Notes: generated by a model from the sequence alone, not told the origin. DNA of 64,000 nt from an uncultured Candidatus Saccharibacteria bacterium (GCA_964633865.1 CAZWIJ010000003.1:40656-104655), one strand, 5' to 3'. Shown: positions 2,689 to 44,539, counted from the first letter of the stretch. Translations and numbers: made by a program.

Positions 2689-4248
2689 TTATTTAATTTT
2701 CTTATTTAACTCAAGAGGAGCGATAAGATTCCATTTTCTTACTATATAATAATACACTAGAATTGCTGGGGCTGATGAAAGCATAACTTGTAGAGATACA
2801 TTTACTAATCCATCTACATCAATAAATAAACCGTATAGTGTTTTTATCCCAAAAGCTGGAATTATCATAATAAGAGAACTAATCAATACCTTAGATGAAT
2901 ATTCTATAATTTGATTTAAATAGTAATTTTTAGTGACTTTAAATACAACATATCCATATATTAGACAAACCACAAATATACTAAATGAAAATGCTAAAGC
3001 TACCCCCACCACTCCATAAATACTTGATAAAATATTTGAAGAAATTACAGTTAGTATAATACTAAAAAGACCTATATACATTGGAGTCTTTGTATCATGT
3101 CTGGCATATAAAACTCTTGAGAACAATGGTATTAATCCTTGAAAAGGTAATGAGATTACAAAAGCAGTAAAGGTCTTATAAACTAAATTCGTTGCTTCCC
3201 AGTCAAATTTACCTGATCCGTACACAATTCTTACTAACTGTGCTCTGTAATTTAACATTAAAAAAGTAATTGGGATTAATGCAAATAAAATTCTCATAAT
3301 AGTAATATTGACATAATTCCTAAAATCTTTTTTTCTATTTTGTGCATAAGATTCTGTAAGATATGGGAAAATTGCAGTCACAAAAGCTACCACTATTATA
3401 CCTATTGCGATTGTGTTTAAATTAAAAGCAAAATTAAATACTGATACTGCTTTTTCTTTTGTAGAAGCAATAGAAGTACCTATAAACATACTAATCATAG
3501 ATATATCTATAACAAGTATTCTTGGCCAATATAAATTCCATAATTTTCTCAAATTATTAAAATTAAATCCAAATGTAAATTTAAATGGAAACTTGGTTCC
3601 AATAAAAGCTGGTATTTGTACTAAAAGATGTAATATAGCTCCTAAGACTACACCATAACCTAAACCCTCAACTCCCACTCTTGGATACAAAAAAGCTATT
3701 CCTATTATAATACCAATATTATAAAATATAGGTGCAATTGCTGCTGAAATAAATTTTTTATAGGTATTCAGAATACTAGTAAATACACTAGATAAACTAA
3801 ATATTAAAGGAGAAAAAGCCATTATTCTCATAAGATCAATTGTATTTTGTAGCTTTTCACCTTCATATGATATAGCAACAATTCTTACCAAATAAGGTGC
3901 TCCAAAAAACATTATCAATGATAAAGCTCCCATAATAAAAAACACTATAACTAACACATCATCTACTAGATCTTGAGCTTCTTTTAAATTTTTTTTATGT
4001 AATAGCTGATTAAAAACTGGAATAAAGGCACTTGACAATGTACCCAAAACTAAAATACCAAAAATCAAATCTGGGATCTTAAAAGCTGATTGATAGCTAT
4101 CGGCTATATCCCCTACTCCAAAATTACTAGTTAATATTCTATCTCTCAAAATGCCTACTAATTTACTCATTAAAGATAATATCATCAGTGTAACTGTATG
4201 AAATAAAATCTTATTATTTTTAAGTGAGCTTTTTATTTTAAAAATCAT
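2689..4248 (-). CDS. murJ: lipid II flippase MurJ (MviN family)
   Basis: 519 aa with ~14 predicted TM segments. N-terminal MurJ-type region (ILRDRILTSNFGVGDIADSYQSAFKIPDLIF). Directly adjacent to and co-oriented with the downstream HAD gene. Confidence 0.8.
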   Translation of the reverse strand: MIFKIKSSLKNNKILFHTVTLMILSLMSKLVGILRDRILTSNFGVGDIADSYQSAFKIPDLIFGILVLGTLSSAFIPVFNQLLHKKNLKEAQDLVDDVLVIVFFIMGALSLIMFFGAPYLVRIVAISYEGEKLQNTIDLMRIMAFSPLIFSLSSVFTSILNTYKKFISAAIAPIFYNIGIIIGIAFLYPRVGVEGLGYGVVLGAILHLLVQIPAFIGTKFPFKFTFGFNFNNLRKLWNLYWPRILVIDISMISMFIGTSIASTKEKAVSVFNFAFNLNTIAIGIIVVAFVTAIFPYLTESYAQNRKKDFRNYVNITIMRILFALIPITFLMLNYRAQLVRIVYGSGKFDWEATNLVYKTFTAFVISLPFQGLIPLFSRVLYARHDTKTPMYIGLFSIILTVISSNILSSIYGVVGVALAFSFSIFVVCLIYGYVVFKVTKNYYLNQIIEYSSKVLISSLIMIIPAFGIKTLYGLFIDVDGLVNVSLQVMLSSAPAILVYYYIVRKWNLIAPLELNKKIK

Positions 4249-5028
4249 TTAAATATATTTAATTAGAAAATCACCTAATTCTATCGCATCTTTTAGTCTA
4301 TCTGTGGATAATTTTTCTAATGGAGGACATTCATCACCAACATAAATTTTGGTAGACACATCAAGCTCAAATAATGCTATATCATTATAACCATTTCCTA
4401 TCACTGCTATGTCTTCCATTCCAAGTCCTAATTTTTTAGCTAGAATTTTCACGGATTCTCCTTTTGTAGTTCCGAGATTTGTTACTTCATATGTATTCAT
4501 ATTTGGGATACAATTTGCTTTATAGTCTACAGGTAATATTACTTCACCTGATTTTATACCAAAAACTATTCTGGCTGGTTTTAAATCATTGATTTTTTTA
4601 ATAAACTTAGATTTATCAAAAATTATCTCATCTGTCATATACCCTAAACTAGGATATAATTCCTTTTCTTTGGTATAAAAAGTATATTTTTGAGCTAAAC
4701 CTCTATAATAACCAATATATAATAAATCATTATTTTCAATTATATAATCTGTTGCATCTAGTATATCTTGACTTAACTCATCTTGAAACAAGTATTTCTC
4801 ATATATATCCCCTATTCTAGCACCATTTTCTAATATCATATATGTATTAGGAACAAACTGAGCTCCATATTTCAAAAGAAATTGGATATAAGAATTTCCT
4901 GTTGCGACAGTACACAATTTTCCAGATCTTTGCATAGCTCTTAATGTGTTTTGTAAATTAAAAGGAATCTCTCTACCTTTTATAGTAAGAGTCCCATCTA
5001 TATCAAAAACAAATAATTTTATAGCCAT
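4249..5028 (-). CDS. HAD-superfamily hydrolase, Cof-like (HAD-IIB) phosphatase
   Basis: N-terminal DxD motif FVFDIDGTLT and C-terminal GNGYND motif (the GDGxND equivalent), 259 aa. Confidence 0.7.
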   Translation of the reverse strand: MAIKLFVFDIDGTLTIKGREIPFNLQNTLRAMQRSGKLCTVATGNSYIQFLLKYGAQFVPNTYMILENGARIGDIYEKYLFQDELSQDILDATDYIIENNDLLYIGYYRGLAQKYTFYTKEKELYPSLGYMTDEIIFDKSKFIKKINDLKPARIVFGIKSGEVILPVDYKANCIPNMNTYEVTNLGTTKGESVKILAKKLGLGMEDIAVIGNGYNDIALFELDVSTKIYVGDECPPLEKLSTDRLKDAIELGDFLIKYI

Positions 5029-5140
5029 ATATTATTATTAAACTATATTTAGTTTAACAGAAATCATGGGTTTATTCAAGGGTATAGAAAGCAAGAATTT
5101 GCTAACTATTCAATGGTTAATTTGATTATAAAGAAAAATA

Positions 5141-5386
5141 TTAATCTCTTATCTCAAAAATTTTATTACTACTTGTAGTACCTCTTTTCAAGACAATTTG
5201 ATTTTTTGAGACTTGAAAAAATTCTGCTAAAAGGCTTATTATTTCTAAATTTGCTTTATTATCTATCGGTAGCGACTTTACTTTTACAAGATATATAGGC
5301 AAATCATTATCCAAAAAAGACTGTGTGGGTAACAGTCTTACTTTGGTTTCTTTTTGCTTTACCTTTACTTTGACTTGAATGAGCAT
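5141..5386 (-). CDS. DUF167 (YggU/UPF0235) family small protein
   Basis: 81 aa. The motif NKANLEIISLLAEFFQVSKNQIVLKRGTTSSNKIFEI matches the YggU consensus (GKAN..L...LA..L.V.KS.V.I..G..SR.K). Its stop abuts the stop-proximal end of the RND gene, so co-transcription is likely. Confidence 0.5.
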   Translation of the reverse strand: MLIQVKVKVKQKETKVRLLPTQSFLDNDLPIYLVKVKSLPIDNKANLEIISLLAEFFQVSKNQIVLKRGTTSSNKIFEIRD

Positions 5387-8300
5387 TTATTTTTTCTTAT
5401 AAGCCCAGTATAACCAATAAATAGGCATCATAGGATAAAATGTTAGCTTCAAAAACCAATTTAAATCATGGAAATTTTTACTAGACCATCTAAAAAATGT
5501 GAATAAAATTGGAGTTGTTATCAAAGAGATAAATCCTGATGATAATAATCCAAACATTATCACTAAAGATATCGGTCTATAAATTTCAGATAACCAAGCT
5601 AGTGGAGCCAAAGAAGCAATAGCAGTGAACTTAGTCATCAAAACTGGTTTTAGTCTAATTCCTGATGATATTGTGATTGCCTTTACTGGATCTTCACCTT
5701 CTTCTATTCTTTGATTTGCTGAATCAATAAGGAAAATTGCCACATTCTCAACAATACCAACTAAAATTATCATTCCAATTATTTCCAAGAATCCAAATTG
5801 TCCATTACTCAAATGAGCAAGTGCAGGCATAATTCCAATAAATGTAAGTGGTATAGTATAAAGAATAACTAAGGGTTGAGTAAATGAATTAAAGAATAAT
5901 GCCAAAACTATATAGCTTGAGAATATAGCTAATAGAAGTGCTATTGACAATTCACTAAATGACTTCAAGAATCCTGCAGTATCACCTTCACTATAAATCT
6001 CTAGAGAATCTTTATTAAGTTCTAATTCTTTTAGCAGTTTAGCATCATCAGCTTGATATTGCTCTATCAAAGCAGTACCTATTCTACTTGCTATTGCTTG
6101 ATCATTAGTATACTCATTATCTAATTTAGCTTTGATAACACCAATTGTTTGTCCTTTAACTCTTTGGATATTAGATTTTTGAGCTGTTTCTTCAATTGAA
6201 CCAATTTCTGATACTTTAAATCTCTGACCTGATGAATTAAATATATTAATATTATTTAATTCATCAATACTTTTTGGACTAGATTTTTGATCTTCTAAAT
6301 AAATATCTATATCTTTACCTTCAATATCTATATTTGTTACTTTCTGGTCATTATTTAGAACAAAATTTTGTTTAATTGAACTGTTAACTAATGCTGTTGC
6401 TGGAATATTTTGACCCAATAATAAATTTTTTTCTTCCAAAATATTCCTGTCAAATCTAAAGTCTAATATCTTATTATCTTTTCCTGTAAATCCATCATCC
6501 ACTTTCTGAACTAACTTTTTACCATCACTACATTCTTGATCAAATATAATTTTGTCATCTATTAGACAAGCTTTGGCTAATGTTTCACCAATTTCTATAT
6601 TAGATTTTTTAATAATATCTAAATTATTATTCTTAACACTCAGTGATACCTGATAATCACTTGTTGGTGGCCCTTGTGTTATTATGTCAGTAGTATAATC
6701 AAATAGTTTTTCATCAAATTCATCTAAATCTTCTCTTAAATCAGCTATGATTTCTTTTGACGAATATTCTGGCCTTTTATCTTCTGACACAAAATTAATA
6801 TAATATTGAAATGAATTATTGCTTGTTTCAATTGAATAGACATCTTTTACTCCCTTATTCTCTTGGATTTTTGTTAAAATATCTGATAATGTATTTTGTT
6901 TGTCATCAACAGTAAGGTTATTAACAAATGTTCCCGTAACAAAAGCTTCATTACTATTATCTCCTGATGAGAACGAAACTGAAATTATTTGTCTTGTTCC
7001 AAAATAATAGGCAGAGATAGCAATTGGAATAACTAACCCTAATATTATAATTAAAGTCGGTACAATCTTATTACCAGCTAAAATTTTCTGATTTAAATTA
7101 ATTAACCATTTTCCAATTCCCCATAGATTTTCTTCTTCACTTGAAGTTGTATTTTTATTTGGTTTTAAGAATATTCCTCCAAGCCAAGCTAAGAAAACTA
7201 TAGGCACTACATATGAACCAACTACTGCTGGTATAATAGTAAGTGGGATATACTTAAAAATTTGTCCTAATATTCCTGAGATTATTCCAAATGGCAAGAA
7301 TACAATTATATTAGTTAGTGTAGCTAAAAATAATCCCATACCGACATCTTTCACAGCTTCTAGAGATGCTTCTTTACCTCTTAATCCAGTATCTATTTTC
7401 CTTTGAATAGATTCCAAAATAACCAAAGTTGGATCAACAACCAGACCTATCACCAAAACAAGTGAGAACAAAACTAGTGTATTCAAACTTTGTCCAGTAA
7501 AGTAAAGATAAATTGTTGAGAATGATAGTGATAATGGAATAGAAATAGCTGAAATTAATGCAGCTCTCCAAGATACAAAAGCTACCATCACTAAAAATAC
7601 TAATTGAATTCCTCCCAATATCCAACCTAAATTAGAAATAAAAGGATTATCAACATCTAACTTACCTCCAATCAGACCACTTATAACTTCATTTACTTGT
7701 TCTTGATTAGAAGCATTAACTGAATAATTTTCTATAATTTGAACTCTTTCTTTATCAAAAGATTTATCTTGATCTTCATAAGTAATCAAATCTACTCCAT
7801 CATAACTTGATATTTTATCTTTTATTTTTTTATCTAACTTAGAAAGATCTGATCCTTTAACTGATTTTATTGAGAATACTTGACTTTTATTAATAATCGA
7901 ATCTTCACCTTGTCTTATACCAGAATAAGTATTGATATCATTTTCAGTCTTATAAGTTGTTTCCAATTGAGCGAAGTCTTGTAATAAAAGTTTAGTTGGA
8001 ACTGGGGTAGGGATAGGCGATGTAAAAGATAAATTTTTGATGTCATCAAGAGAGGTAGATTCAAGACTAGTCACAATTGATTGAGATTTATCATCAATAT
8101 TAATATCAGAAATCACAGGTAAACTTTCTCCAGTATTTTTTAGTTTAGCAACAATACCATCTACAGAAATCCCATTTTGAGCTAATTTATCTGTATCTAA
8201 TTTTATTACTAATCTTTTCTCTAATGGGATTTCTGCTTCAAATTTAGCTATTTCTGGAAATTCTTTTAAATCTTCTTTTAATTTTTCTGATATATTATAG

Positions 8301-32593: not shown

Positions 32594-34912
32594 TTATTTT
32601 AAAGCTACTGGAATTACATCATCCATAGTCTCAGCAAAAACAAATTTCAAATCATCTTTTACATTCTGAGGTAATTCTTCCAAATCACTTTTATTAGATT
32701 TAGGAATAATAATAGTCTTTAGGCCTGCTCTGTGAGCTGCTAAAATTTTATTTTTGAGTCCTCCTATTTTCATAGCCTTACCTCTCAAATTTATCTCGCC
32801 AGTCATACCAACTGTTCTATCTACTTTTCTCTTAGTAAGTGCAGATATTAGAGCTGTTGCCATAGCTAAGCCCGCTGAAGGACCATCCTTTGGAGTTGCT
32901 CCTGCTGGTACATGCAAATGCATATCTTGAGATTTTATAGTCTCAACCTCTATATTGTATTTATTTGCATTAGATTTGACATAAGAGTAAGCTGCTTGAG
33001 CTGATTCCTGCATCACTTTACCAAGTTGACCTGTTAACTGTAAATTTCCTTCACCTTTAAATAGATTTGTTTCTATAAATAAGATATCGCCTCCATGAGG
33101 AGTCCAAGCAAGCCCAGTCACTACACCTATTTCATCTTTTTTATTAATTCTACTTTCCTCATATTTTTCTGACTTCAAATATTTCTCAATATTATCTGGT
33201 TTAATTTTTACCTTAAAGTCTTTATCTCCTAACATGATAAATTCTTTAGCTACTTTTCTAGCTATTTTAGATAATTCACGATCAAAACTTCTAAGACCAG
33301 CCTCAAATGTATATTTACTAATAATAGTCAAAATACTCTTATCTTCAAATTCTAAAATTTTTGGTGTTAACCCACTCTTTTTGATAACTCTAGGAACCAA
33401 ATATTGTTTAGCTATATTTAATTTCTCATCATCAGTATAACCAGTAAATTCTATAATCTCCATTCTATCTAATAATGGTTCTGGAATTGAGGATAAATCA
33501 TTTGCAGTTGTAATAAATATAATATCAGATAAATCATATTCTATATCCAAATAATGATCTATAAAATCTTTATTTTGAGCTGGATCTAGAACTTCCAAAA
33601 GAGCTGCCGAAGGATCTCCTCTGAAATCCGAACCTAATTTATCTATCTCATCTAGCATAAATACTGGATTTGAAGAACTGATATTTTTCAAACCTTGAAT
33701 AATTCTACCTGGCATAGCACCAACATAAGTTCTTCTATGACCTCTAATTTCAGTCTCATCTCTTACTCCACCAAGAGATACTTTAACAAATTCTCTACCA
33801 GTTGCACGAGCTATAGATTCTCCAATTGAAGTTTTACCTGTACCAGGAGGTCCAAAGAAACAAAGAATTGTTCCCTGTGGTTTTTTAGTTAATTTCTCAA
33901 CAGAAAGATATTCTAAGATTCTTTCTTTTATCTCTTCCAAACCATAGTGATCATTATCCAAAATTTCTTTAGCTTTGGACAATTCTATGCTAACTTTTTT
34001 CTTTTTATCCCAAGGAAGTGAAGCTAAGATCTCCAGATAATTTTGGATATAAGAGCTTTCAGGAGAAAAAGGTGGCATTTTATCCAATCTAGAAAGTTCT
34101 GTAAAAGCTTTTTTCTCAACTTTTTTTGGTAATTTTGCTTTTTTTAATTTATTCCTCAATTCTCCAAATTCACTATCTTCTTGACTCATTCCCAATTCTT
34201 TCTCTATAGTTTTCATTTGTTCACGAAGCATAGCTTCTCTAGCAAATTTACCGACTTTTTTCTGGGTTTCCTGCTGAACTTTTTGACCTAATTTCAAAAT
34301 CTCTTTTTCTTTATTAATATAAAGATTTATTTTCTTTAATTTTTCTAAAAGATCAGTCTCAGCTAATAAAGCTTGCTTCTCTTCATTTTTGATAGTTAAA
34401 ATAGAACTTATTAAAGAAGCTAACTCATTTGCTTCAATCTTATCACCTATAATTTCATTCACAACTGGAAGAGAAATTGATACTCCCATATTCAAAATAT
34501 CTTTAAATACAAGTATAATATTTCGAATTACTGCTTCAATTTCAACTAAATTCTCAATTGGCTTATTTTCTAAAAATTTAAATTCACTAAAAAATGTATT
34601 ATCTTTTTTTTCAATCTCACTAACTTCTACAGGATACAAACCTTCTACCAAAACACCCGTTGGCCCTTCTGGCATTTTCCAAATTCTAATTATTTTTGCT
34701 ACTGTACCTACATTATAAAGATTTTCAGCTTCTATTTCATCTTTATATTTTTTTTGAAAAACAAAAACAGGATCTATATTATTATCCAGAGAAAAATTAA
34801 GTGCATTTAAAGATTCTTCTCTTTCGAAAACAAGAGAAATAATTTCTTTTGGAAATAAAACTTTATTTTTTAAGGCTATCAATGGTATTTTGTTCAAATC
34901 TACTTTACTCAT
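32594..34912 (-). CDS. lon: ATP-dependent Lon protease
   Basis: Lon N domain, AAA+ module (GPPGTGKTS, MLDEIDK), and proteolytic domain with PKDGPSAG (catalytic Ser) and a downstream Lys. 772 aa. Confidence 0.9.
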   Translation of the reverse strand: MSKVDLNKIPLIALKNKVLFPKEIISLVFEREESLNALNFSLDNNIDPVFVFQKKYKDEIEAENLYNVGTVAKIIRIWKMPEGPTGVLVEGLYPVEVSEIEKKDNTFFSEFKFLENKPIENLVEIEAVIRNIILVFKDILNMGVSISLPVVNEIIGDKIEANELASLISSILTIKNEEKQALLAETDLLEKLKKINLYINKEKEILKLGQKVQQETQKKVGKFAREAMLREQMKTIEKELGMSQEDSEFGELRNKLKKAKLPKKVEKKAFTELSRLDKMPPFSPESSYIQNYLEILASLPWDKKKKVSIELSKAKEILDNDHYGLEEIKERILEYLSVEKLTKKPQGTILCFFGPPGTGKTSIGESIARATGREFVKVSLGGVRDETEIRGHRRTYVGAMPGRIIQGLKNISSSNPVFMLDEIDKLGSDFRGDPSAALLEVLDPAQNKDFIDHYLDIEYDLSDIIFITTANDLSSIPEPLLDRMEIIEFTGYTDDEKLNIAKQYLVPRVIKKSGLTPKILEFEDKSILTIISKYTFEAGLRSFDRELSKIARKVAKEFIMLGDKDFKVKIKPDNIEKYLKSEKYEESRINKKDEIGVVTGLAWTPHGGDILFIETNLFKGEGNLQLTGQLGKVMQESAQAAYSYVKSNANKYNIEVETIKSQDMHLHVPAGATPKDGPSAGLAMATALISALTKRKVDRTVGMTGEINLRGKAMKIGGLKNKILAAHRAGLKTIIIPKSNKSDLEELPQNVKDDLKFVFAETMDDVIPVALK

Positions 34913-34915
34913 AAT

Positions 34916-35278
34916 TTAAATATAATTTACTCTAAAATAAACTGCATAATCTTGATCTATAAACTCGCAGAATTCGTTAATATAATTTTGGACTATATTG
35001 TAATAATCTATCAGATCTGGATTGTTTTTTCTGATAACATAACACATTTCTTTCAATTCTGACTTTATATCTGTGTTATCTAAAATTTTGTTGTTAATAA
35101 TACTAAATAATTTTTCTTTATTCTTCTCAAAATCAAATTCTTTATCTTCATATTTTTCTAGTACTATATCTTGATCCCACTTTTCAAAATCCTCTGAAGA
35201 AAGATTCCCAAAAGATAAAAAAACATCAGCTAATCCATTATCAATATACTCTACAATATAGAAACTTATTACTTTCAC
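34916..35278 (-). CDS. hypothetical acidic protein (120 aa)
   Basis: ORF only; no motif recognised. Tightly follows lon. Confidence 0.4.
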   Translation of the reverse strand: MKVISFYIVEYIDNGLADVFLSFGNLSSEDFEKWDQDIVLEKYEDKEFDFEKNKEKLFSIINNKILDNTDIKSELKEMCYVIRKNNPDLIDYYNIVQNYINEFCEFIDQDYAVYFRVNYI

Positions 35279-35435
35279 TATTTTTAATTAAGCTAATATA
35301 CTCTACATTATATATTAAATTTATGAAAATTGCAAAACTAAAATTATGAATTTTATTAATTGACAAGCAAAAAGAAAAATCTCATACAATCTAATGCATG
35401 AGCTAATTTTAAAGTTTAATCTTATTAATTAAAAA

Positions 35436-35792
35436 TTAATAAGTAACAGTATTGTTGTATTCAGAATATGAATCTGGACATTTTTCTCCTGTCTCAGGAT
35501 TAAATTTATATCCTGCAAGACATTTTTTGTCTTCCTCAGATATTGATGGATTATTTTGTACTACTCCTGGACAATTATAATTATAAAATGTATTTTCTAC
35601 TCCTTCAAATACTCCATAGAACATTCCATTATCAGGACATTTTTTTATACAACCCCAAGATTCTATTGAAAAACGATTGTCATAACAGTAAATTTTATCT
35701 TGAGCTTTAACTTCAAATTGAGCTTTAACTTCAAATGAAGAAGTTAAAGAAAGCACAGAAATTAAAATCCCTAAATTTAATCTTTTTGACAT
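35436..35792 (-). CDS. small secreted cysteine-rich protein (118 aa; signal peptide, 6 Cys)
   Basis: N-terminal signal peptide MSKRLNLGILISVLSLTSS with an FEVKAQ-FEVKAQ duplicated cleavage-region motif. The mature part has 6 Cys (three possible disulfides). Confidence 0.5.
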   Translation of the reverse strand: MSKRLNLGILISVLSLTSSFEVKAQFEVKAQDKIYCYDNRFSIESWGCIKKCPDNGMFYGVFEGVENTFYNYNCPGVVQNNPSISEEDKKCLAGYKFNPETGEKCPDSYSEYNNTVTY

Positions 35793-35935
35793 ATACTTAT
35801 TTTTTCTGAATGTACTTATCTACATTATCATATAACTTACATTTTGTCAAGAATTATTTACATTTTTATTAAAATAAAAAACCCTAGACTCATAATTGAG
35901 ACTAAGGTTATGTATAAATTGTAAACTTTCAAATA

Positions 35936-36583
35936 CTATTTAGTCTCAGAAAGTTCTTTTCTTAGAGTTAGAGGATCTTTTCTGATCTCAAATTTTCTTC
36001 TTCCTAGAATAGAGTCCAAGAAATATCCTGAACTAGATCCCAAAACCTGATCAAAGTCTAATATCCCTTCATCATAAACATTACCGATAGTAGACATATT
36101 TCCAGCTACTAGTTTCTGGAATTGATTCTCTGATATTCTTTTATACCAAAGAAAGTATTCCCCATCCTCTACAGATGTAAACGAGATAGATTCTCCTTCA
36201 GGAAGAGAAAGAAATATTTCTTTCCATTCTTCACTTTTTTGGGAAAAAACTCCATCTCTTATCTCTCTTTCTAATTCGTAACATTCATCTAAAGTTTCTT
36301 TTAGATGAGATTTCTTATAATTTAAAGAATCTGTTCCTTCGCCGTAATGATATTCAGTCTGAGTTTCAAACACTAATCTTGAATATTTTTTCAAGATTTC
36401 AGAATCAAAATCCAGAATATGTAATAAAAAAGTAATTTTTTTTATTATACGATTAATATCGTATTCTATACTATTAATTTCTCTTTCAAGAGATTTAGAT
36501 TCTTCAGAATTACCAAAAGAATTACCAAACAAATTTTTAAATAAATTCAACATACTTAATTTCCTCTTTTTATCAAAGAACAT
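35936..36583 (-). CDS. hypothetical protein (215 aa)
   Basis: ORF only; no motif recognised. Confidence 0.4.
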   Translation of the reverse strand: MFFDKKRKLSMLNLFKNLFGNSFGNSEESKSLEREINSIEYDINRIIKKITFLLHILDFDSEILKKYSRLVFETQTEYHYGEGTDSLNYKKSHLKETLDECYELEREIRDGVFSQKSEEWKEIFLSLPEGESISFTSVEDGEYFLWYKRISENQFQKLVAGNMSTIGNVYDEGILDFDQVLGSSSGYFLDSILGRRKFEIRKDPLTLRKELSETK

Positions 36584-36751
36584 TTAACAGTCATGATTAT
36601 AACATTTTTTATATATTTGTCAAGTACATTAAACGAAAAAATATTATTCCATATCATCTTTCAAATTTAAAATATCCTTCTTTTTTTATTGTCGTTTTTA
36701 ATTTATTTGATAAATATATTTTTTCTGTTATACTATATATAGTTATTTTTT

Positions 36752-36836
36752 GGAAGAGTCGCATAGAGGCCTAGTGCGCACGCTTGGAAAGCGTGTATGG
36801 GGAAACTCATCGAGGGTTCGAATCCCTCCTCTTCCG
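36752..36836 (+). tRNA. tRNA-Ser (anticodon GGA), long variable arm
   Basis: Acceptor GGAAGAG/CTCTTCC, anticodon stem CACGC/GCGTG with loop TTGGAAA (GGA), variable arm ATGGG-gaaa-CTCAT, T-arm GAGGG-TTCGAAT-CCCTC, discriminator G. Confidence 0.85.
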
Positions 36837-36981
36837 CCCAAAAATTAAATATTAGGATTCTACTAATTATGGATAAATAAAGATAAATACATTACATTCT
36901 CAGATTATTTCATATAATTCATCACAGATAGAAGAGGTTAGAGAAATTTGTAATTTCTTATCGGAATTCATAAATAATAAT

Positions 36982-37284
36982 TTGAATGATTCCAAAAACA
37001 AACTCTGGCATGGTGGACCTGTTTGGTTTATCAATAGAAATCCTATAGTATCATATACTGTCCGAAAAAGTGGAAAAGTAGCTCTTATTTTCTGTAGTGG
37101 CCAAAGTTTTGATGAACCATCTTTAGTAAATACAGGTAAATTCAAAGAATCTGAGATTTTGTATAGTGACATAAAAGAAATTAACATAGATGATTTAAAA
37201 AGATGGCTTAATAAGTCAAGTAAAATCCAATGGGATTATAAAAATATTGTTAAAAGAAAAGGTGTATTGGTAAAATTAACTTAA
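36982..37284 (+). CDS. hypothetical small protein (~100 aa; TTG start, exact start uncertain), first gene of a three-gene plus-strand operon
   Basis: The frame is open from 36877 with no ATG; TTG at 36982 is the first plausible start. Composition is protein-like. 15 nt upstream of the kinase gene. The overlapping minus-strand ORF 36900-37187 is judged spurious. Confidence 0.4.
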   Translation: MNDSKNKLWHGGPVWFINRNPIVSYTVRKSGKVALIFCSGQSFDEPSLVNTGKFKESEILYSDIKEINIDDLKRWLNKSSKIQWDYKNIVKRKGVLVKLT

Positions 37285-37299
37285 TAAAATAATATTCTA

Positions 37300-37824
37300 A
37301 TGAAGAAATCTATATTAATAACAGCAACTCCTGGAACAGGAAAATCTGCCGTTTGTGATGAATTAAATCGACTTGGATATAAGTCATTTGGAATTGAGAA
37401 TATTGAAGGATTATTTACAATGATTAATAAGAATACTGGGAAACCTTTTGAAGATTATGATAATAATGATTTTGAGAAAGTAAAACAATCTACCTGGATT
37501 TGTAGTAAGCAAAAATTAGAAACTCTTATTAAAGAGAATTCTGATAGCACTGTATTTTATTGTGGAACTACATCCAATCTTGATGATATGCTTCCATTAT
37601 TTGACAAAATATTTTTATTAAAAGTAAATCAAAATATACTTTGTGAGAGGCTTAGTACTCGTACATCAAATGATTTTGCAAAAACAAAAGAAGTTCAAGA
37701 ATGGGTGTTTAGTTGGAAATCAGAATGGGAAAACCATATAAAAGAAAAAGGAGCCATAATCATTGATGCAAGTAAATCAATTAAAGAAGTTACAGAAAAT
37801 ATCATTAGAGAAGTACATAATTGA
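37300..37824 (+). CDS. P-loop NTPase, adenylate/nucleoside-monophosphate kinase-like (AAA_18/AAA_33-type)
   Basis: Walker A ITATPGTGKSAV at the N-terminus; 174 aa, the size and architecture of small NMP kinases. Ends with a TGA stop. Confidence 0.55.
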   Translation: MKKSILITATPGTGKSAVCDELNRLGYKSFGIENIEGLFTMINKNTGKPFEDYDNNDFEKVKQSTWICSKQKLETLIKENSDSTVFYCGTTSNLDDMLPLFDKIFLLKVNQNILCERLSTRTSNDFAKTKEVQEWVFSWKSEWENHIKEKGAIIIDASKSIKEVTENIIREVHN

Positions 37825-37843
37825 ATTAATCTTAATAATTTTA

Positions 37844-38329
37844 ATGAATAAAAATGACATTAACCCAAAATTATACTATTACACTTGTCCAGAAGCACTA
37901 GGATTCTTAGAAATAGAGTTAGATGAAGAAAATAAAATAAAAAATGCAGTTTTTACAGATACAAAAAAACATAATTATTTAGAGTCACCGGAATTAATTA
38001 AGAAAACTTTAGACGATTATTTTTTTAGAAACAAAAATTTACCTAATTATTTAATTTCAGATAAAATTGAAGGCACAGAATTTCAAAAAAGTGTTTGGAA
38101 TGCCATAATTACAATCCCATTTGGTGAGACAATAACTTATACTAAAATTGCTATTAAAATTGGAAGACCTAAAGCTTCTAGAGCAATTGGGAATGCATGT
38201 GGGAAAAACCCTATAGCTCTCTTTATTCCTTGTCATCGTGTTGTAAAAGAAAAATCAGAGAATTATGGATATTACTGGGGTAAAGAAAGAAAAAAATGGT
38301 TACTAGATTTAGAAAGAGATGATCTATAA
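37844..38329 (+). CDS. ogt: methylated-DNA--protein-cysteine methyltransferase (Ogt/MGMT)
   Basis: Active-site motif IPCHRVV plus a helix-turn-helix region (TYTKIAIKIGRPKASRAIGNACGKNP). Start set at the ATG at 37844 (MNKNDIN...), in frame with the longer track ORF that overlaps the kinase. Confidence 0.8.
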   Translation: MNKNDINPKLYYYTCPEALGFLEIELDEENKIKNAVFTDTKKHNYLESPELIKKTLDDYFFRNKNLPNYLISDKIEGTEFQKSVWNAIITIPFGETITYTKIAIKIGRPKASRAIGNACGKNPIALFIPCHRVVKEKSENYGYYWGKERKKWLLDLERDDL

Positions 38330-38433
38330 ATGTTATTCTCTAGAATGTATTTAAATTAAAATCGTAATAAATAGTTGACAAATTTTTAATTTTATAATAC
38401 AATTCATCCTGTTCTTTTGTTTTATTTTATTAT

Positions 38434-38847
38434 ATGAAAATTAAGATTTTTGTTTGTCTGGTAAATAAATTTTTATTAACTGAAATCAAATTTATAAAGA
38501 AAAGAAAATCTTCTATAAATTTATCGAAAAAATATGACAAAACACTTTCTGATATTACTATATTCGAAGATTTATATCTAAGAAAGCTAGATTTAGGATT
38601 AATTAAATTATCTATTAATCTAACTAACTCTAGTAAAATTAGATTAATTAAACTAAAAAAAGAAAAGTTAAATAACTTTTCTCAATATGATATTATGAAA
38701 GTTATTTTTCCAGCAAAATATAGTTTATTAAGAGAGATATCTTCAAGTAAAAGTAACCTCTTTACTTTAAATAGAGAAGATTATGAGAAAGAATTAAAAA
38801 TTTGCTCTTATATTCATAAAGTCTTAATATCTGTACACATTCCATAA
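38434..38847 (+). CDS. hypothetical lysine-rich protein (137 aa)
   Basis: ORF only, low-complexity K/L/I-rich; could be non-coding. Confidence 0.25.
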   Translation: MKIKIFVCLVNKFLLTEIKFIKKRKSSINLSKKYDKTLSDITIFEDLYLRKLDLGLIKLSINLTNSSKIRLIKLKKEKLNNFSQYDIMKVIFPAKYSLLREISSSKSNLFTLNREDYEKELKICSYIHKVLISVHIP

Positions 38848-38999: not shown

Positions 39000-40079
39000 A
39001 TGAGTAACTCAAAAGAAGTCCGATCCAAAATGGATATTTTATTAGCAGAAAACCCTATAAATATACCAAATATTGGAGAAGATGTTGTTGGAAAAGTTTT
39101 AGAAATTGGAACAAATGCACTATATATAGATTTAGGAATAGGAACTGGTATAGTATTAGGAGAAGAATTAAATGATGGATTTGGGACTTTCAAACAATTG
39201 AAAATTGGTGATGAAGTAACCGCCACAGTTATGAATCTAAACACTGATGATGGATATATAGAATTATCTATGAAATCTGCATCTGAAGATAAAGTTTGGG
39301 ATGACCTATATGAGAAAAAAGAAGCAAATGAGCCTGTTGATGTAAAAATTCTTGATGCAAACAAAGGTGGACTTTTAGTACAAATAAATGGAATTGTTGG
39401 ATTTTTACCAGTTTCTCAATTAGCATATGATCATTATCCTAGAGTAGATGGTGGAGATAAAAATAAAATTTTATCTAGATTAAATGATTATATAAACACT
39501 ACTTTTAGAGTATCTATTATAACTGTTGATAGAGATGAGAATAAATTGATTGTTTCTGAAAAAATAGCTAGAAAATCTGAAGAGTTAAATCTAATTAATT
39601 CTTATGAAAAAGGTGATATAATCGAAGGTGAAATTACTGGTGTTGTAAATTTTGGTATTTTCTTAAAATTTGGAACTCCTGAGCAAAAAATCGAAGGTCT
39701 TGTGCATATTTCAGAACTTTCTTGGCAATTAGTTGAAGATCCAAAAACAATGTTTAAAGAAGGTGAAAAAATTAAAGCTAAAGTTATCGATGTGTCTAAT
39801 GGAAAAGTTTCTCTTTCCGTAAAAGCTTTATTGGAAGATCCATGGCAAACTGTTGCTGTTAATTTCAAACCTAATCAAGAAATAAAAGGTACTATATTAA
39901 AGATGAATCACTTTGGTATATTTGTTCAACTAGAAGGAAATATACGAGGGTTAGTACATAGCTCTGAAATTGAAAAGGAGAAAGCAAAATATAATGGTCT
40001 CAAAGAAGGTATTGTTCAAATATTCAAAATTATATCTGTAGATCCAGCTGAACATAGAGTTAGCTTGTGTTTAGCATAA
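39000..40079 (+). CDS. rpsA: 30S ribosomal protein S1 (short form, four S1 domains)
   Basis: Repeated S1 OB-fold motifs (GEDVVGKVLEIGTNALYIDLG..., GDIIEGEITGVVNFGIFLKFG...EGLVHISELSW, IKGTILKMNHFGIFVQLEGNIRGLVHSSEI). Start placed at the ATG at 39000 (MSNSKEV...); the longer track ORF from 38907 adds a hydrophobic non-S1 leader. Confidence 0.75.
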   Translation: MSNSKEVRSKMDILLAENPINIPNIGEDVVGKVLEIGTNALYIDLGIGTGIVLGEELNDGFGTFKQLKIGDEVTATVMNLNTDDGYIELSMKSASEDKVWDDLYEKKEANEPVDVKILDANKGGLLVQINGIVGFLPVSQLAYDHYPRVDGGDKNKILSRLNDYINTTFRVSIITVDRDENKLIVSEKIARKSEELNLINSYEKGDIIEGEITGVVNFGIFLKFGTPEQKIEGLVHISELSWQLVEDPKTMFKEGEKIKAKVIDVSNGKVSLSVKALLEDPWQTVAVNFKPNQEIKGTILKMNHFGIFVQLEGNIRGLVHSSEIEKEKAKYNGLKEGIVQIFKIISVDPAEHRVSLCLA

Positions 40080-42031: not shown

Positions 42032-42105
42032 GGATGTGTAGCTCAGCTGGTTAGAGCGGGCGTCTTATAAGCGCCAGGTCGGTGGTTCAAGTCCACCCAT
42101 ATCCA
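42032..42105 (+). tRNA. tRNA-Ile with anticodon UAU (tRNA-Ile-GAU-like backbone with G34 replaced by T)
   Basis: GGATGTG-TA-GCTC-AGCTGGTTA-GAGC-G-GGCGT-CTTATAA-GCGCC-AGGTC-GGTGG-TTCAAGT-CCACC-CATATCC-A. The body is nearly identical to bacterial tRNA-Ile(GAU), but the anticodon loop reads CTTATAA. No encoded CCA. Confidence 0.75.
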
Positions 42106-42212
42106 CATTTAATTTTAAATAAAGCAAATCATATATTGAACATGTAACAGGTTATTGATGATATAGAATAAAAACAAATAAAACAATATAAAAAGCCATT
42201 TTAAATTTAAAA

Positions 42213-42262: not shown

Positions 42263-42291
42263 AAATAGAATTTTTTAAAAAAATTCTATTT
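42263..42291. repeat. perfect 29-bp palindrome AAATAGAATTTTTT-A-AAAAAATTCTATTT overlapping the stop codon of the LRR gene
   Basis: Exact self-complementarity seen directly. Either a symmetric bidirectional terminator or a dimeric protein-binding site. Confidence 0.5.
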
Positions 42292-44539
42292 AACTTCTAA
42301 TTTCATCTGAAAGATTTAAATTATTTACTTCTTCTTCAATGTTTTTATTAAGATCAATATAAACACCTATTAAGCAATTTTCTAACAACTTATCTAAATT
42401 TTTTGCTATTTTGAGTCCCCTTAACTTTAAATGTCTTCCTATTTCTTTTGGTAATTTTAGATTCTCTATTGTCTCTAATTTATTTAAATTAAGACTTCCT
42501 CCTATCTTCTCTGGTAATTTGAGATTATCGGCTGTCTTTAATGCATTCAAACCAAGACTTCCTCCTATCTTCTCTGGCAATTTGAGATTATCGGCTGTCT
42601 TTAGTACATTCAAACCAAGGTTTCCTACTATTTCCTTTGGTAATTCTAAATTATCAGCTGTCTTTAATCCATTTAAATTAAGATTTCCTATTATCTTCTC
42701 TGGTAATTTGAGATTATCGGTTGTCTTTAACCTATCTAAATTAAGATTTCCTACTATTTCCTTTGGTAATTCTAAATTCTCGACTGTTTCTAATCTATCT
42801 AAATAAAGATATCCTCCTATTTCCTTTGGTAATTCTAAATTATTGATTCTTTCTAATCCACTCAAATCAAGATATCCTCCTATTTTCTCTGGTAATTTTA
42901 AATCATCAGCTTTTTCTAATCCACTTAAATTAAGATGTCCTCCTATTTTCTCTGGTAATTCTAAATAATAGGCTTCATATAATCCACTTAAATCAAGACC
43001 TCCTCCTATTTTCTCTGGTAATTCTAAATAATAGGCTTCATATAATCCACTTAAATTAAGATTTCCTACTATTTCCTTTGGTAATTCTAAATTATCGGCT
43101 GTCTTTAATCCATCTAAATTAAGATTTCCTCTTATTATATCTGGTAGTTTTAAATTTTCTGCTGTTTTTAGATAACCTAAATCAATATCTCCGTAATGAT
43201 AACCTATATCTCCAGATAAAGCTTCTTCTTGTGTTAAACTTATTTTATCTGCTGTTGTATCTAATATAAATGCTAAATCTTCTTTTACATCTCTTCCTCT
43301 CTTTACCTTTTCTAATCTTGGATCTTGATTATATCCAAAACTTATAAATTCCTCTTCTAATTCCCAACTCAATATTAAATCTTCTTTATTTAGTTCTTCT
43401 TTATTCTCTATTTTATCTAATATTTCTGTTAATCTCTTTGCATTCTCATCTTTCTTTTTGTATTCTTCTGCTTTATCTCCAAATTCTTCTAGCTTTTCAC
43501 TCAATATATTTGTTCCTGCTATATATTCATCCATATTTTGTTCTTCTGCTATTCCTCTTATCTCTACTATTTCTTCTCCTTCCATCCTGATTGTGATTCT
43601 TGGATTTTCTATTTGTCCATTCTTGTTTTTGCTATAATATATATAAAAGTCTCCCATTTCTAAATAGCTTTCTGCTGTTGATTCACTTGCTATACACCAT
43701 CCTGTATTTCTTCCTTCTAATGTCTTTGTTACTTCTTTTGGTTCACTTCCTTTCTCATATCTTATCCATTCTCCTTCTGTTATTGATAATTCTGTATTGC
43801 CTTCTACTTCTGCATTTTTTAAGGCTTTTGCATATAATTCTCCAAAGTCTGCTTTCTTGATTAATTTTTCCAATTCTTCATCTTCTCCTACTTCTATCTT
43901 ATTTTCTTCTACATATTTTATTATTCCATCTACTGCATAGGCTAATGCTTCTCTATTTAATTCTGGGTATGGGGCTACTGTTCCTTTACTTCTTTTTCCA
44001 AATTTAAATGTTTCTTTATCATATTTAGATAATTTTAACATTCCTTGGAACATCCAATACTTTGCCCACATTGGATAATGGCTTGTATCACTGCTTATTA
44101 GATAATCTGCCCATTTACCTAAACTTTTTTCTTGATCTTTGGCTATAGTTCCTATTGATCCTTCTTTCATTCCTGACCTTTCTATATCTTTTTCTGTATA
44201 TTCTCTCTCAAAAAACTCTCCTAGCTCTCCTCCTTGTCCTCTCTCTATTGCTTGTTTTCTTTGCACATTAAAGTAACTTAATGGTATTTCTTCTGCTTCC
44301 ATTACATGATCTTTGTATAGATATCTTCTCTTTACTCTTTCTTTTAACTCTTCATTCTCTTCCATTCTAGCATTATCTCTTTCTAATTTCCTTAGCCAAT
44401 TTCCTAGCTTTTCTACTGGTTTTTGACTTACTTTCTCTCCTCTTTCTTTTGTTCTCTTAGTTTCTGCTTCTACTTCTTCACTTATATGTAAGTTTCCGAA
44501 TTTTTTCTTTATAAATTCTGCTCCTTTCTTCTCTTCCAT
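42290..44539 (-). CDS. leucine-rich repeat (LRR) protein: ~450-aa charged N-terminal region of unknown function plus ~13 tandem 22-aa LRRs
   Basis: C-terminal repeats with consensus L-N-L-x-G-L-K-T-A-D-N-L-K-L-P-E-K-I-G-G-x (22 aa), encoded by 66-bp tandem DNA repeats. The coding strand is extremely purine-rich (E/K-rich protein). No recognisable domain in the N-terminal part. Confidence 0.7.
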   Translation of the reverse strand: MEEKKGAEFIKKKFGNLHISEEVEAETKRTKERGEKVSQKPVEKLGNWLRKLERDNARMEENEELKERVKRRYLYKDHVMEAEEIPLSYFNVQRKQAIERGQGGELGEFFEREYTEKDIERSGMKEGSIGTIAKDQEKSLGKWADYLISSDTSHYPMWAKYWMFQGMLKLSKYDKETFKFGKRSKGTVAPYPELNREALAYAVDGIIKYVEENKIEVGEDEELEKLIKKADFGELYAKALKNAEVEGNTELSITEGEWIRYEKGSEPKEVTKTLEGRNTGWCIASESTAESYLEMGDFYIYYSKNKNGQIENPRITIRMEGEEIVEIRGIAEEQNMDEYIAGTNILSEKLEEFGDKAEEYKKKDENAKRLTEILDKIENKEELNKEDLILSWELEEEFISFGYNQDPRLEKVKRGRDVKEDLAFILDTTADKISLTQEEALSGDIGYHYGDIDLGYLKTAENLKLPDIIRGNLNLDGLKTADNLELPKEIVGNLNLSGLYEAYYLELPEKIGGGLDLSGLYEAYYLELPEKIGGHLNLSGLEKADDLKLPEKIGGYLDLSGLERINNLELPKEIGGYLYLDRLETVENLELPKEIVGNLNLDRLKTTDNLKLPEKIIGNLNLNGLKTADNLELPKEIVGNLGLNVLKTADNLKLPEKIGGSLGLNALKTADNLKLPEKIGGSLNLNKLETIENLKLPKEIGRHLKLRGLKIAKNLDKLLENCLIGVYIDLNKNIEEEVNNLNLSDEIRS
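42400..43200. repeat. tandem 66-bp coding repeats (~12-13 copies) of the LRR gene, including two adjacent near-identical copies around 42950-43080
   Basis: Repeated ...ctctggtaattctaaat...ccacttaaattaagatttcctcctattttctctggtaattc... units are visible directly. The antisense ORF 42411-42806 is a mirror artefact of this array. Confidence 0.75.

Follow-up and report, generated by a model that had tools for sequence, protein, structure and literature searches.

The genes lying around tRNA-Ser(GGA) between lon and rpsA (positions 34916–38847) in a 64,000-nt stretch of DNA from an uncultured Candidatus Saccharibacteria bacterium (the whole stretch, 27.3% GC, is further referred to as the window) probably constitute an ordinary strain-variable accessory pocket situated between two conserved core units. 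An earlier reading of the same DNA, made from the sequence alone (the original prediction), regarded these genes as an accessory or integration hotspot at a tRNA gene, comprising among others a possible kinase–Ogt module and a 100-aa unknown protein. In our analysis, in which the close inspection of open reading frames (ORFs) and protein families was centred on 28–46 kb, the non-housekeeping character of the pocket, its restriction to a lineage and the non-standard nature of the kinase were retained, but tRNA-directed integration, the kinase–Ogt module and the “100-aa unknown” were not. The host is an AT-rich bacterium of the Candidate Phyla Radiation (CPR) type with a tiny genome, whose core units acid120–lon–tyrS (minus strand) and rpsA–ftsH–tRNA-Ile(UAU) (plus strand) bracket the pocket. 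The latter is proposed to be recombination-prone and to contain independently transcribed single-gene cassettes (sec118, unk215/205 and K137), each with its own sigma-70-like promoter, which would be gained or lost via recombination inside short shared terminator/promoter modules. It also houses tRNA-Ser(GGA) and one three-gene mosaic operon (a DUF1801/YdhG-family gene, a P-loop kinase gene and ogt), which does not appear to be a dedicated kinase–Ogt module. All these components belong to known kinds.

The narrow distribution of the pocket was revealed by comparison with other loci. The strain of the window was recovered by exact-sequence look-up from several groundwater-type metagenomes (L001–L006, L046), and among the loci compared the pocket was present only in contigs of this same strain and in a ~95–96% identical strain, L032, where the gene order is lon–acid120–sec–(extra gene)–unk205–tRNA-Ser–DUF1801 (intact)–kinase–Ogt–K137–rpsA–ftsH. 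Twelve relatives, gathered by a metagenome scan with RpsA (39–96% RpsA identity) and viewed upstream of rpsA, contained neither the block genes nor lon in this position. In L020 (RpsA 96%, FtsH 91%) the gene adjoining rpsA upstream encodes a divergent secreted coiled-coil protein, and in L021 (RpsA 69%) the place is taken by tRNA-Lys and 2-oxoacid:ferredoxin oxidoreductase; the block is missing there, i.e., it is not universally conserved in relatives, in line with the accessory nature originally supposed. On the other side of rpsA, ftsH follows in nine of the 12 relatives, which are all those with downstream sequence, and is succeeded by tRNA-Ile(UAU) in three.

Turnover of a single cassette was observed between the window and L032, which differ by a 944-nt indel at 35856, L032 being the strain that has the cassette. 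The cassette spans promoter to terminator, and both its junctions fall inside a shared terminator plus −35 module, located in the window between unk215 and sec118 (35840–35899, minus strand): the blastn segments of the two strains overlap at 35842–35899, and the intergenic alignment puts the crossover in a shared module of ~35–40 nt. Because both junctions lie within this module, the indel points to gain or loss of cassettes through recombination between short intergenic repeats. In L032 the cassette (3625–4519; gene 3868–4461, minus strand) has the duplicated terminator/−35 module on its flanks, and the 197-aa product of its gene weakly matches the helix-hairpin-helix of the RpoA C-terminal domain (PF03118, E = 0.0025). 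The two strains further differ structurally by a 1-nt frameshift in the DUF1801 gene, an indel of 13 nt ahead of the tRNA and an 18-nt tandem duplication within sec118.

Selective constraint, estimated between the window and L032 as the ratio of non-synonymous to synonymous substitution rates (dN/dS), was 0.00–0.055 for tyrS, lon, acid120, rpsA and ftsH and 0.18–0.68 for the block genes, including 0.18 for the DUF1801 gene, 0.43 for Ogt and 0.44 for the kinase; the two latter genes are thus under relaxed constraint (~0.43). Synonymous divergence of the block versus the flanks was also considered as a sign of recent exchange and dropped, since sliding-window identity was patchy everywhere (87–99.7%). 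One more junction is offered by L045, a 34-kb contig found in two samples, which is 100% identical to the window from position 37832 on and carries 588 unrelated bases upstream (L045 1–588) with no match in the window or in the loci retrieved for comparison. The breakpoint falls within the 19-nt kinase–Ogt spacer, 8 nt downstream of the stop codon of the kinase gene and 12 nt short of the start codon (ATG) of ogt. L045 represents either a chimera produced in assembly or a structural variant in which this site is devoid of the kinase.

The first gene of the plus-strand operon, whose spacers are exactly 15 and 19 nt as originally noted, is neither unknown nor intact, being a frameshifted member of the widespread DUF1801/YdhG family (36869–37284) with a 1-nt deletion just after the start. 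The reported 100-aa ORF begins with TTG at 36982 and ends at 37284, and its frame is free of stops from 36877 onward. With the translation extended to 135 aa, 6377 homologs were retrieved, the best-scoring of those listed being mostly 129–138 aa long and covering 90–100% of the query; many listed homologs, and more than half of the 55–65% identical ones, are annotated with PF08818 or named “DUF1801 domain-containing protein” by NCBI. Addition of the upstream residues raised the PF08818 score from 14.7 to 22.5 bits (22.2–22.5 bits for 126–135 aa; cut-off 27.2) and supplied six invariant positions, I10, Y13, N14, C25, L28 and I32, in an alignment of the subfamily (A2). The closest homolog, P0099 of L032, is 88% identical and 138 aa long and begins with MNEIKISTLHS. 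Judging by these homologs, the complete gene of the DUF1801 family is ~135–138 aa long, and the 100-aa ORF covers its C-terminal three-quarters. In the DNA alignment one base is lost six nt after the ATG (ATGGAT-AAAT in the window versus ATGAATGAAAT in L032), so that the ATG at 36869 now reads M-D-K-stop. As the identical deletion is present in four independent metagenome assemblies (L001, L004, L005 and L006), it is a fixed mutation in the population rather than an artefact of assembly.

An AlphaFold model built from the A2 alignment (predicted local distance difference test, pLDDT, 83) comprises helices at residues 5–15 and 19–35, a five-strand sheet and a C-terminal helix. The top two PDB matches of the model are B. 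subtilis YdhG (2oc6) and a Listeria YdhG-like protein (9t2w), with template modeling (TM) scores of 0.52–0.67 and Foldseek E-values of only 0.02–0.05. According to the model, translation from TTG 36982 would yield a product that starts with residue 36 and has lost both N-terminal helices, i.e., two of three; because of this loss the gene, a family member by descent, is most likely inactivated or severely truncated. A dN/dS of 0.18 against L032 shows that it was under selection until recently. Programmed frameshifting at ATG-GAT-AAA-TAA was considered and appears unlikely, as a +1 slip would miss the ORF frame and a −1 slip would occur without a canonical slippery site. The A2 subfamily is unusually conserved across phyla, with 55–65% identity between CPR and Bacteroidota/Flavobacterium and a broadly bacterial spread, and 47 columns are invariant among 14 A2 sequences, including WHxxPVWF and IQWDYKNIVKRKG. 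Such conservation points to a specific conserved activity of the subfamily. Elsewhere, genes of this subfamily are paired with an AHSA1/SRPBCC gene; of the 13 other distinct contexts of the kinase, none has a DUF1801 gene beside it.

The second gene of the operon encodes a 174-aa protein (37300–37824, plus strand) recognized by the AAA_18 model PF13238 (37.3 bits, cut-off 29.4, E = 4e-9). Only 98 homologs were found among 5.8e9 proteins, and in these the Walker A residues G12, G14 and K15 and the LID residues R117 and R121 are invariant, while T46 and W66 are conserved residues specific to the family. As originally supposed, the protein does not belong to the standard housekeeping enzymes: NCBIfam equivalog models gave 12–24 bits against cut-offs of 65–204, namely 23.8 versus 152 for NF003012, 23.4 versus 83 for Tmk, 17.1 versus 65.6 for CoaE, 14.3 versus 168 for Adk and 13.8 versus 204 for AroK. 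The structural model is confident (pLDDT 92), and the nearest solved folds are those of AK6/hCINAP/Fap7 (TM ~0.6 at ~20% identity). We regard the protein as a catalytically plausible kinase with the nucleoside monophosphate (NMP) kinase fold from an uncharacterised AAA_18 family of DPANN archaea and CPR bacteria.

A scan of 185,579 GTDB species with the kinase profile revealed at least eight loci. The closest homologs outside the lineage with examined context (60–70% identity) reside on archaeal contigs, such as L015, with PolB, two RFC subunits, FEN1/XPG and Trm5/TYW2, and L007, labelled Woesearchaeota and having an AMP/thymidine-phosphorylase-like neighbour; the contexts in L016, L041 and L043 are archaeal-looking as well. 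Homologs labelled Patescibacteria, Saccharibacteria or SR1 are 55–58% identical. In a neighbor-joining tree of 92 members, calculated without support values, the window and L032 kinases form a long branch nested in a crown clade with archaeal-context sequences, and bacterial-labelled kinases are located near the base. From this placement we infer that the kinase was most likely acquired horizontally, in keeping with a source among DPANN archaea; gene sharing between CPR and DPANN has already been documented (PMC8204110, PMC12455944). Wedged between DUF1801 and Ogt, the kinase would be a passenger from a family found mainly in DPANN archaea; it probably functions without Ogt, on a substrate of nucleotide or nucleoside-like nature. 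Its stop codon (37822–37824) is TGA, used by only two of the 49 ORFs of at least 150 aa in the window, a small hint toward foreign origin. The only recurring neighbour of the kinase in the contexts examined is a NUDIX hydrolase, located directly upstream in L017 (9250–10531) or three genes downstream in L041 (7001–9565), one case each.

Ogt (37844–38329, plus strand; 161 aa) matches PF01035 with 109.2 bits (cut-off 27, E = 1e-31) and TIGR00589 with 107.8 bits (cut-off 46.4). Its start is the ATG at 37844, giving the same length as in homologs; gene callers took an overlapping TTG. The protein aligns to M. tuberculosis OGT (4wxd, E = 4e-24) with conservation of the Tyr, the Arg finger, the Asn hinge and PCHRV, and in the active site, LFIPCHRVVKE, the acceptor cysteine is intact, whereas the alkyltransferase-like protein ATL (3gva) matches only at E = 2.5e-6. 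By these features Ogt is a predicted canonical suicide O6-alkylguanine-DNA alkyltransferase. Its closest homologs come from CPR, Parcubacteria included (50–60% identity), and three of the 11 closest are fusions of an N-terminal DUF1801 with a C-terminal Ogt domain, or a fragment of such a fusion: the fusions P0228 (PF08818 at 5e-13, PF01035 at 4e-28) and P0229 and the fragment P0222. Because of these DUF1801–Ogt fusions in sister Ogt lineages (the Rosetta stone principle), DUF1801 appears to be the likelier functional or ancestral partner of Ogt, better supported than the kinase. Genes directly upstream of Ogt in L039 and L036 were also considered as DUF1801 candidates and proved to be of other families: in L039 Ogt stands 9 nt after a VOC/glyoxalase-like gene, with Tag further upstream, and in L036 7 nt after a Cass2/GyrI-like gene. 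The L039 locus (4916–7176) is a Parcubacteria alkylation-repair cluster of Tag (3-methyladenine glycosylase I), the VOC/glyoxalase-like gene and then Ogt, and a convergent gene there encodes TfoX_N fused to a second MGMT-like DNA-binding domain.

The operon could nevertheless be a true alkylation-damage or nucleotide-pool-sanitising module, as the original prediction suggested, in which the kinase would handle damaged or salvaged nucleotides together with Ogt. The position of all three genes on one strand with short gaps and no strong terminator between them, the same arrangement in L032, the NUDIX hydrolases neighbouring the kinase in L017–19 and L041 and the repair cluster with Tag around Ogt of L039 are consistent with such a role. 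But kinase and Ogt are never adjacent in the 13 further distinct contexts of the kinase (L007–L014, L015, L016, L017, L041, L043) or in the three further distinct contexts of Ogt (L036, L039, L044), the pairing being confined, among the contexts examined, to this species-level lineage; moreover, the first gene of the operon is frameshifted, kinase and Ogt evolve under the relaxed constraint mentioned above, and L045 may have no kinase upstream of Ogt. We consider a module of this kind unlikely. A combined reading, which we find rather unlikely, would have DUF1801/YdhG-type proteins as dedicated Ogt partners in CPR and the DPANN kinase recruited here, the result being a decaying three-component damage/nucleotide-salvage module; DUF1801 might then be a small ligand- or metal-binding accessory sensing or assisting alkylation repair, with the frameshift and relaxed selection as signs of decay and the kinase in the same transcription unit. 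It is also quite improbable that the kinase is a housekeeping enzyme which stands beside Ogt as a non-orthologous NMP kinase, dephospho-CoA kinase or Fap7-like replacement. Some sources do name its homologs “dephospho-CoA kinase” or “broad-specificity NMP kinase”, AK6/Fap7 are the best fold matches, and the catalytic motifs are invariant; against this stand the low scores of all equivalog models, the limited similarity to solved folds, the small and patchy family, a genomic context that differs every time and a dN/dS of 0.44.

Site-specific integration of the block as a genomic island at tRNA-Ser(GGA) would agree with the position of the tRNA gene (36751–36840, plus strand; found by ARAGORN and, with 54 bits, by Rfam, as originally annotated) mid-way in a lineage-variable, orphan-rich region, and is in our view highly improbable. 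Neither the ORFs of 28–46 kb nor the block as it occurs in L032 included an integrase, recombinase or transposase; the 24-nt 3' end of the tRNA-Ser, a direct repeat of which would mark an integration boundary, occurs in a single copy in the 64 kb with up to three mismatches allowed, and a repeat search of the window gave no relevant family of att type. The GC content of the block is 25.5% versus 27.3% in the window, i.e., there is no compositional anomaly. The variable genes lie on both sides of tRNA-Ser, at which the minus- and plus-strand genes diverge in the window and in L032, with transcription running away from it, and the observed indel sits at the promoter/terminator repeat and not at the tRNA. 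The presence/absence polymorphism among L020, L021 and L032 is not specific to integrative islands. A defence island or prophage remnant was considered too and rejected, PHROG and PADLOC giving no matches of substance: PHROGs matched Ogt only, and PADLOC gave a single weak match of the kinase to VakA (E = 0.001, 17.7 bits), a name which we did not find in the literature. The Rfam scan of 28–46 kb revealed tRNAs only.

Several points weigh against the interpretation of the region as an accessory pocket with a mosaic operon and a passenger kinase. The tight spacing of the co-directional genes and their retention together in L032 give the unit the look of a functional operon, and only one independent lineage has this arrangement, so the three genes may have been co-selected. 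In two other contexts the kinase has NUDIX genes beside it or in its vicinity, a hint of nucleotide metabolism that would suit a pool-sanitising role. The DUF1801 domains of the fusions come from a subfamily different from that of the window's protein, and an hhalign comparison of the window's subfamily with a single fused DUF1801 sequence was not significant. As to the kinase, its tree is a neighbor-joining one without support values, and the domain-of-life assignment of most contigs carrying it relies on gene context or on labels of metagenome-assembled genomes. Finally, the alternative junction in L045 could be due to chimeric assembly.

All ORFs of the original prediction were found by our ORF scan with the coordinates and descriptors reported there. 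The standard genetic code (code 11) gives dense long ORFs, 49 of which are at least 150 aa long; the alternative code of SR1/Gracilibacteria, with UGA read as Gly, was ruled out, since TGA terminates two of these 49 ORFs and the 174-aa length of the kinase matches that of its homologs. The pocket is surrounded by the bacterial markers lon (LonA type), tyrS, rpsA (S1), ftsH and lepA, with lon (32594–34912, minus strand) as the left flank and rpsA (39000–40079, plus strand) as the right one. Next to lon lies acid120 (34916–35278, minus strand), which encodes an acidic protein of 120 aa (pI 4.3) with a GTG start and which is 99.2% identical in L032; it had no match in Pfam, NCBIfam, PADLOC or PHROG. 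Because 3 nt separate its stop from the start codon of lon (34912–34918) and its dN/dS (0.027) is close to that of lon (0.025), acid120 is best assigned to the lon–tyrS operon: the ORF and its acidity are as first described, but its membership in the variable pocket is not upheld. Its product may be a small acidic protein associated with Lon and specific to the lineage.

Among the cassettes on the minus strand, sec118 (35436–35792) has the signal-peptide-like N-terminus and the six Cys residues reported originally, a promoter-like site of its own and a terminator-like hairpin at 35402–35381, and is by these features a predicted small secreted-type protein in a stand-alone cassette. It is only 87% identical in L032 (dN/dS 0.68). 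At ~35700 it contains the 18-nt tandem duplication FEVKAQFEVKAQ (FEVKAQ twice), which is located at the end of the signal peptide and is absent from L032. The independent contigs L001 and L004 both start at 35706, within sec118, which suggests that population heterogeneity breaks assemblies there. The next gene, unk215 (35936–36583), is indeed an orphan ORF of 215 codons, but the length of its product is probably 205 aa with Met11 as the start, as judged from the AGAGGA motif 8 nt before the ATG at 36553 and from other gene calls, which give 205 aa. It is preceded by a 12/12 match to a sigma-70-like promoter, TTGACA-16-TATAAT, at 36623–36596; its dN/dS is 0.19, and it matched four cluster representatives among 1.84 billion, the sole non-near-identical one at 46%. 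On the plus strand, K137 (38434–38847) is Lys-rich (16.8%; pI 9.9), has a GC content of 20% and a promoter-like site (11/12 match) at 38375–38403, and is 94% identical in L032, with seven synonymous and eight non-synonymous changes (dN/dS 0.27). It gave no family match in Pfam, NCBIfam, PADLOC or PHROG and was not found upstream of rpsA in L020 and L021; it is probably a real gene confined to the lineage.

Beyond the pocket, tRNA-Ile(UAU) (42032–42106, plus strand) directly follows ftsH, as it does in L020 (3899–3973), L021 (12982–13056), L023 (14213–14289) and L032 (10720–10794), and this position is kept in relatives down to 45% RpsA identity. A tRNA-Ile(UAU) is uncommon in bacteria, where AUA is usually decoded by a lysidine-modified CAU tRNA, and its presence may mean TilS-independent AUA decoding in this AT-rich lineage. 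Further on, a 749-aa protein (42290–44539, minus strand) contains ~11 tandem 63-nt (21-aa) repeats of leucine-rich type and is 89% identical in L005, its neighbours being 100% identical; it looks like a hypervariable surface or leucine-rich repeat protein.

Taken together, these results correct the annotation of a 100-aa “hypothetical” protein, also given as 100 aa in sequence databases, to a frameshifted DUF1801 gene and remove the tempting but unsupported kinase–Ogt module. From the Rosetta-stone fusion of DUF1801 with Ogt, a role amenable to testing can be suggested for this large, functionally uncharacterised domain family. The compact, well-conserved P-loop kinase family has confident models, and its members in DPANN archaea are 60–70% identical to that of a CPR bacterium, one more clear case of the gene exchange already known between these two groups of ultra-small symbionts. 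The frameshift correction, the fusions and the kinase family are useful but minor, and current understanding is unchanged by them.

In comparison with known systems, the window's DUF1801 protein shares its alpha/beta fold with B. subtilis YdhG, which is Fra, a frataxin-like iron chaperone (PDB 2oc6; PMC4934914, PMC4380498), but the identity is 12%, and the window's protein belongs to its own subfamily with the motif IQWDYKNIVKRKG, scores below the Pfam gathering cut-off and is frameshifted; iron handling is a feature of YdhG and is not extended here to the window's protein. The kinase resembles AK6/hCINAP/Fap7 (3iij, 4cvn), its best profile and fold matches, in the Walker A motif GxGKS, the LID motif RLxxR and the overall fold, and differs from them in the low identity and TM score, in its own T46 and W66 in the substrate domain and in the patchy DPANN/CPR distribution; it likewise stays far below the cut-off of the archaeal “putative kinase” model NF003012. 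Ogt corresponds to Ogt/MGMT proteins (4wxd; the C-terminal domain of E. coli Ada, 1sfe) over the full length of the C-terminal DNA-binding domain and in the active site and differs in nothing essential, its short N-terminal domain without a PF02870 match being the same as in CPR relatives. The pocket as a whole shares with tRNA-associated islands and flexible regions the restriction to a lineage, the orphan genes, the elevated dN/dS and the indels that distinguish close strains, but, unlike tRNA-associated islands, it is devoid of an integrase, att repeats and a compositional signature, and its turnover apparently proceeds via short intergenic repeats.

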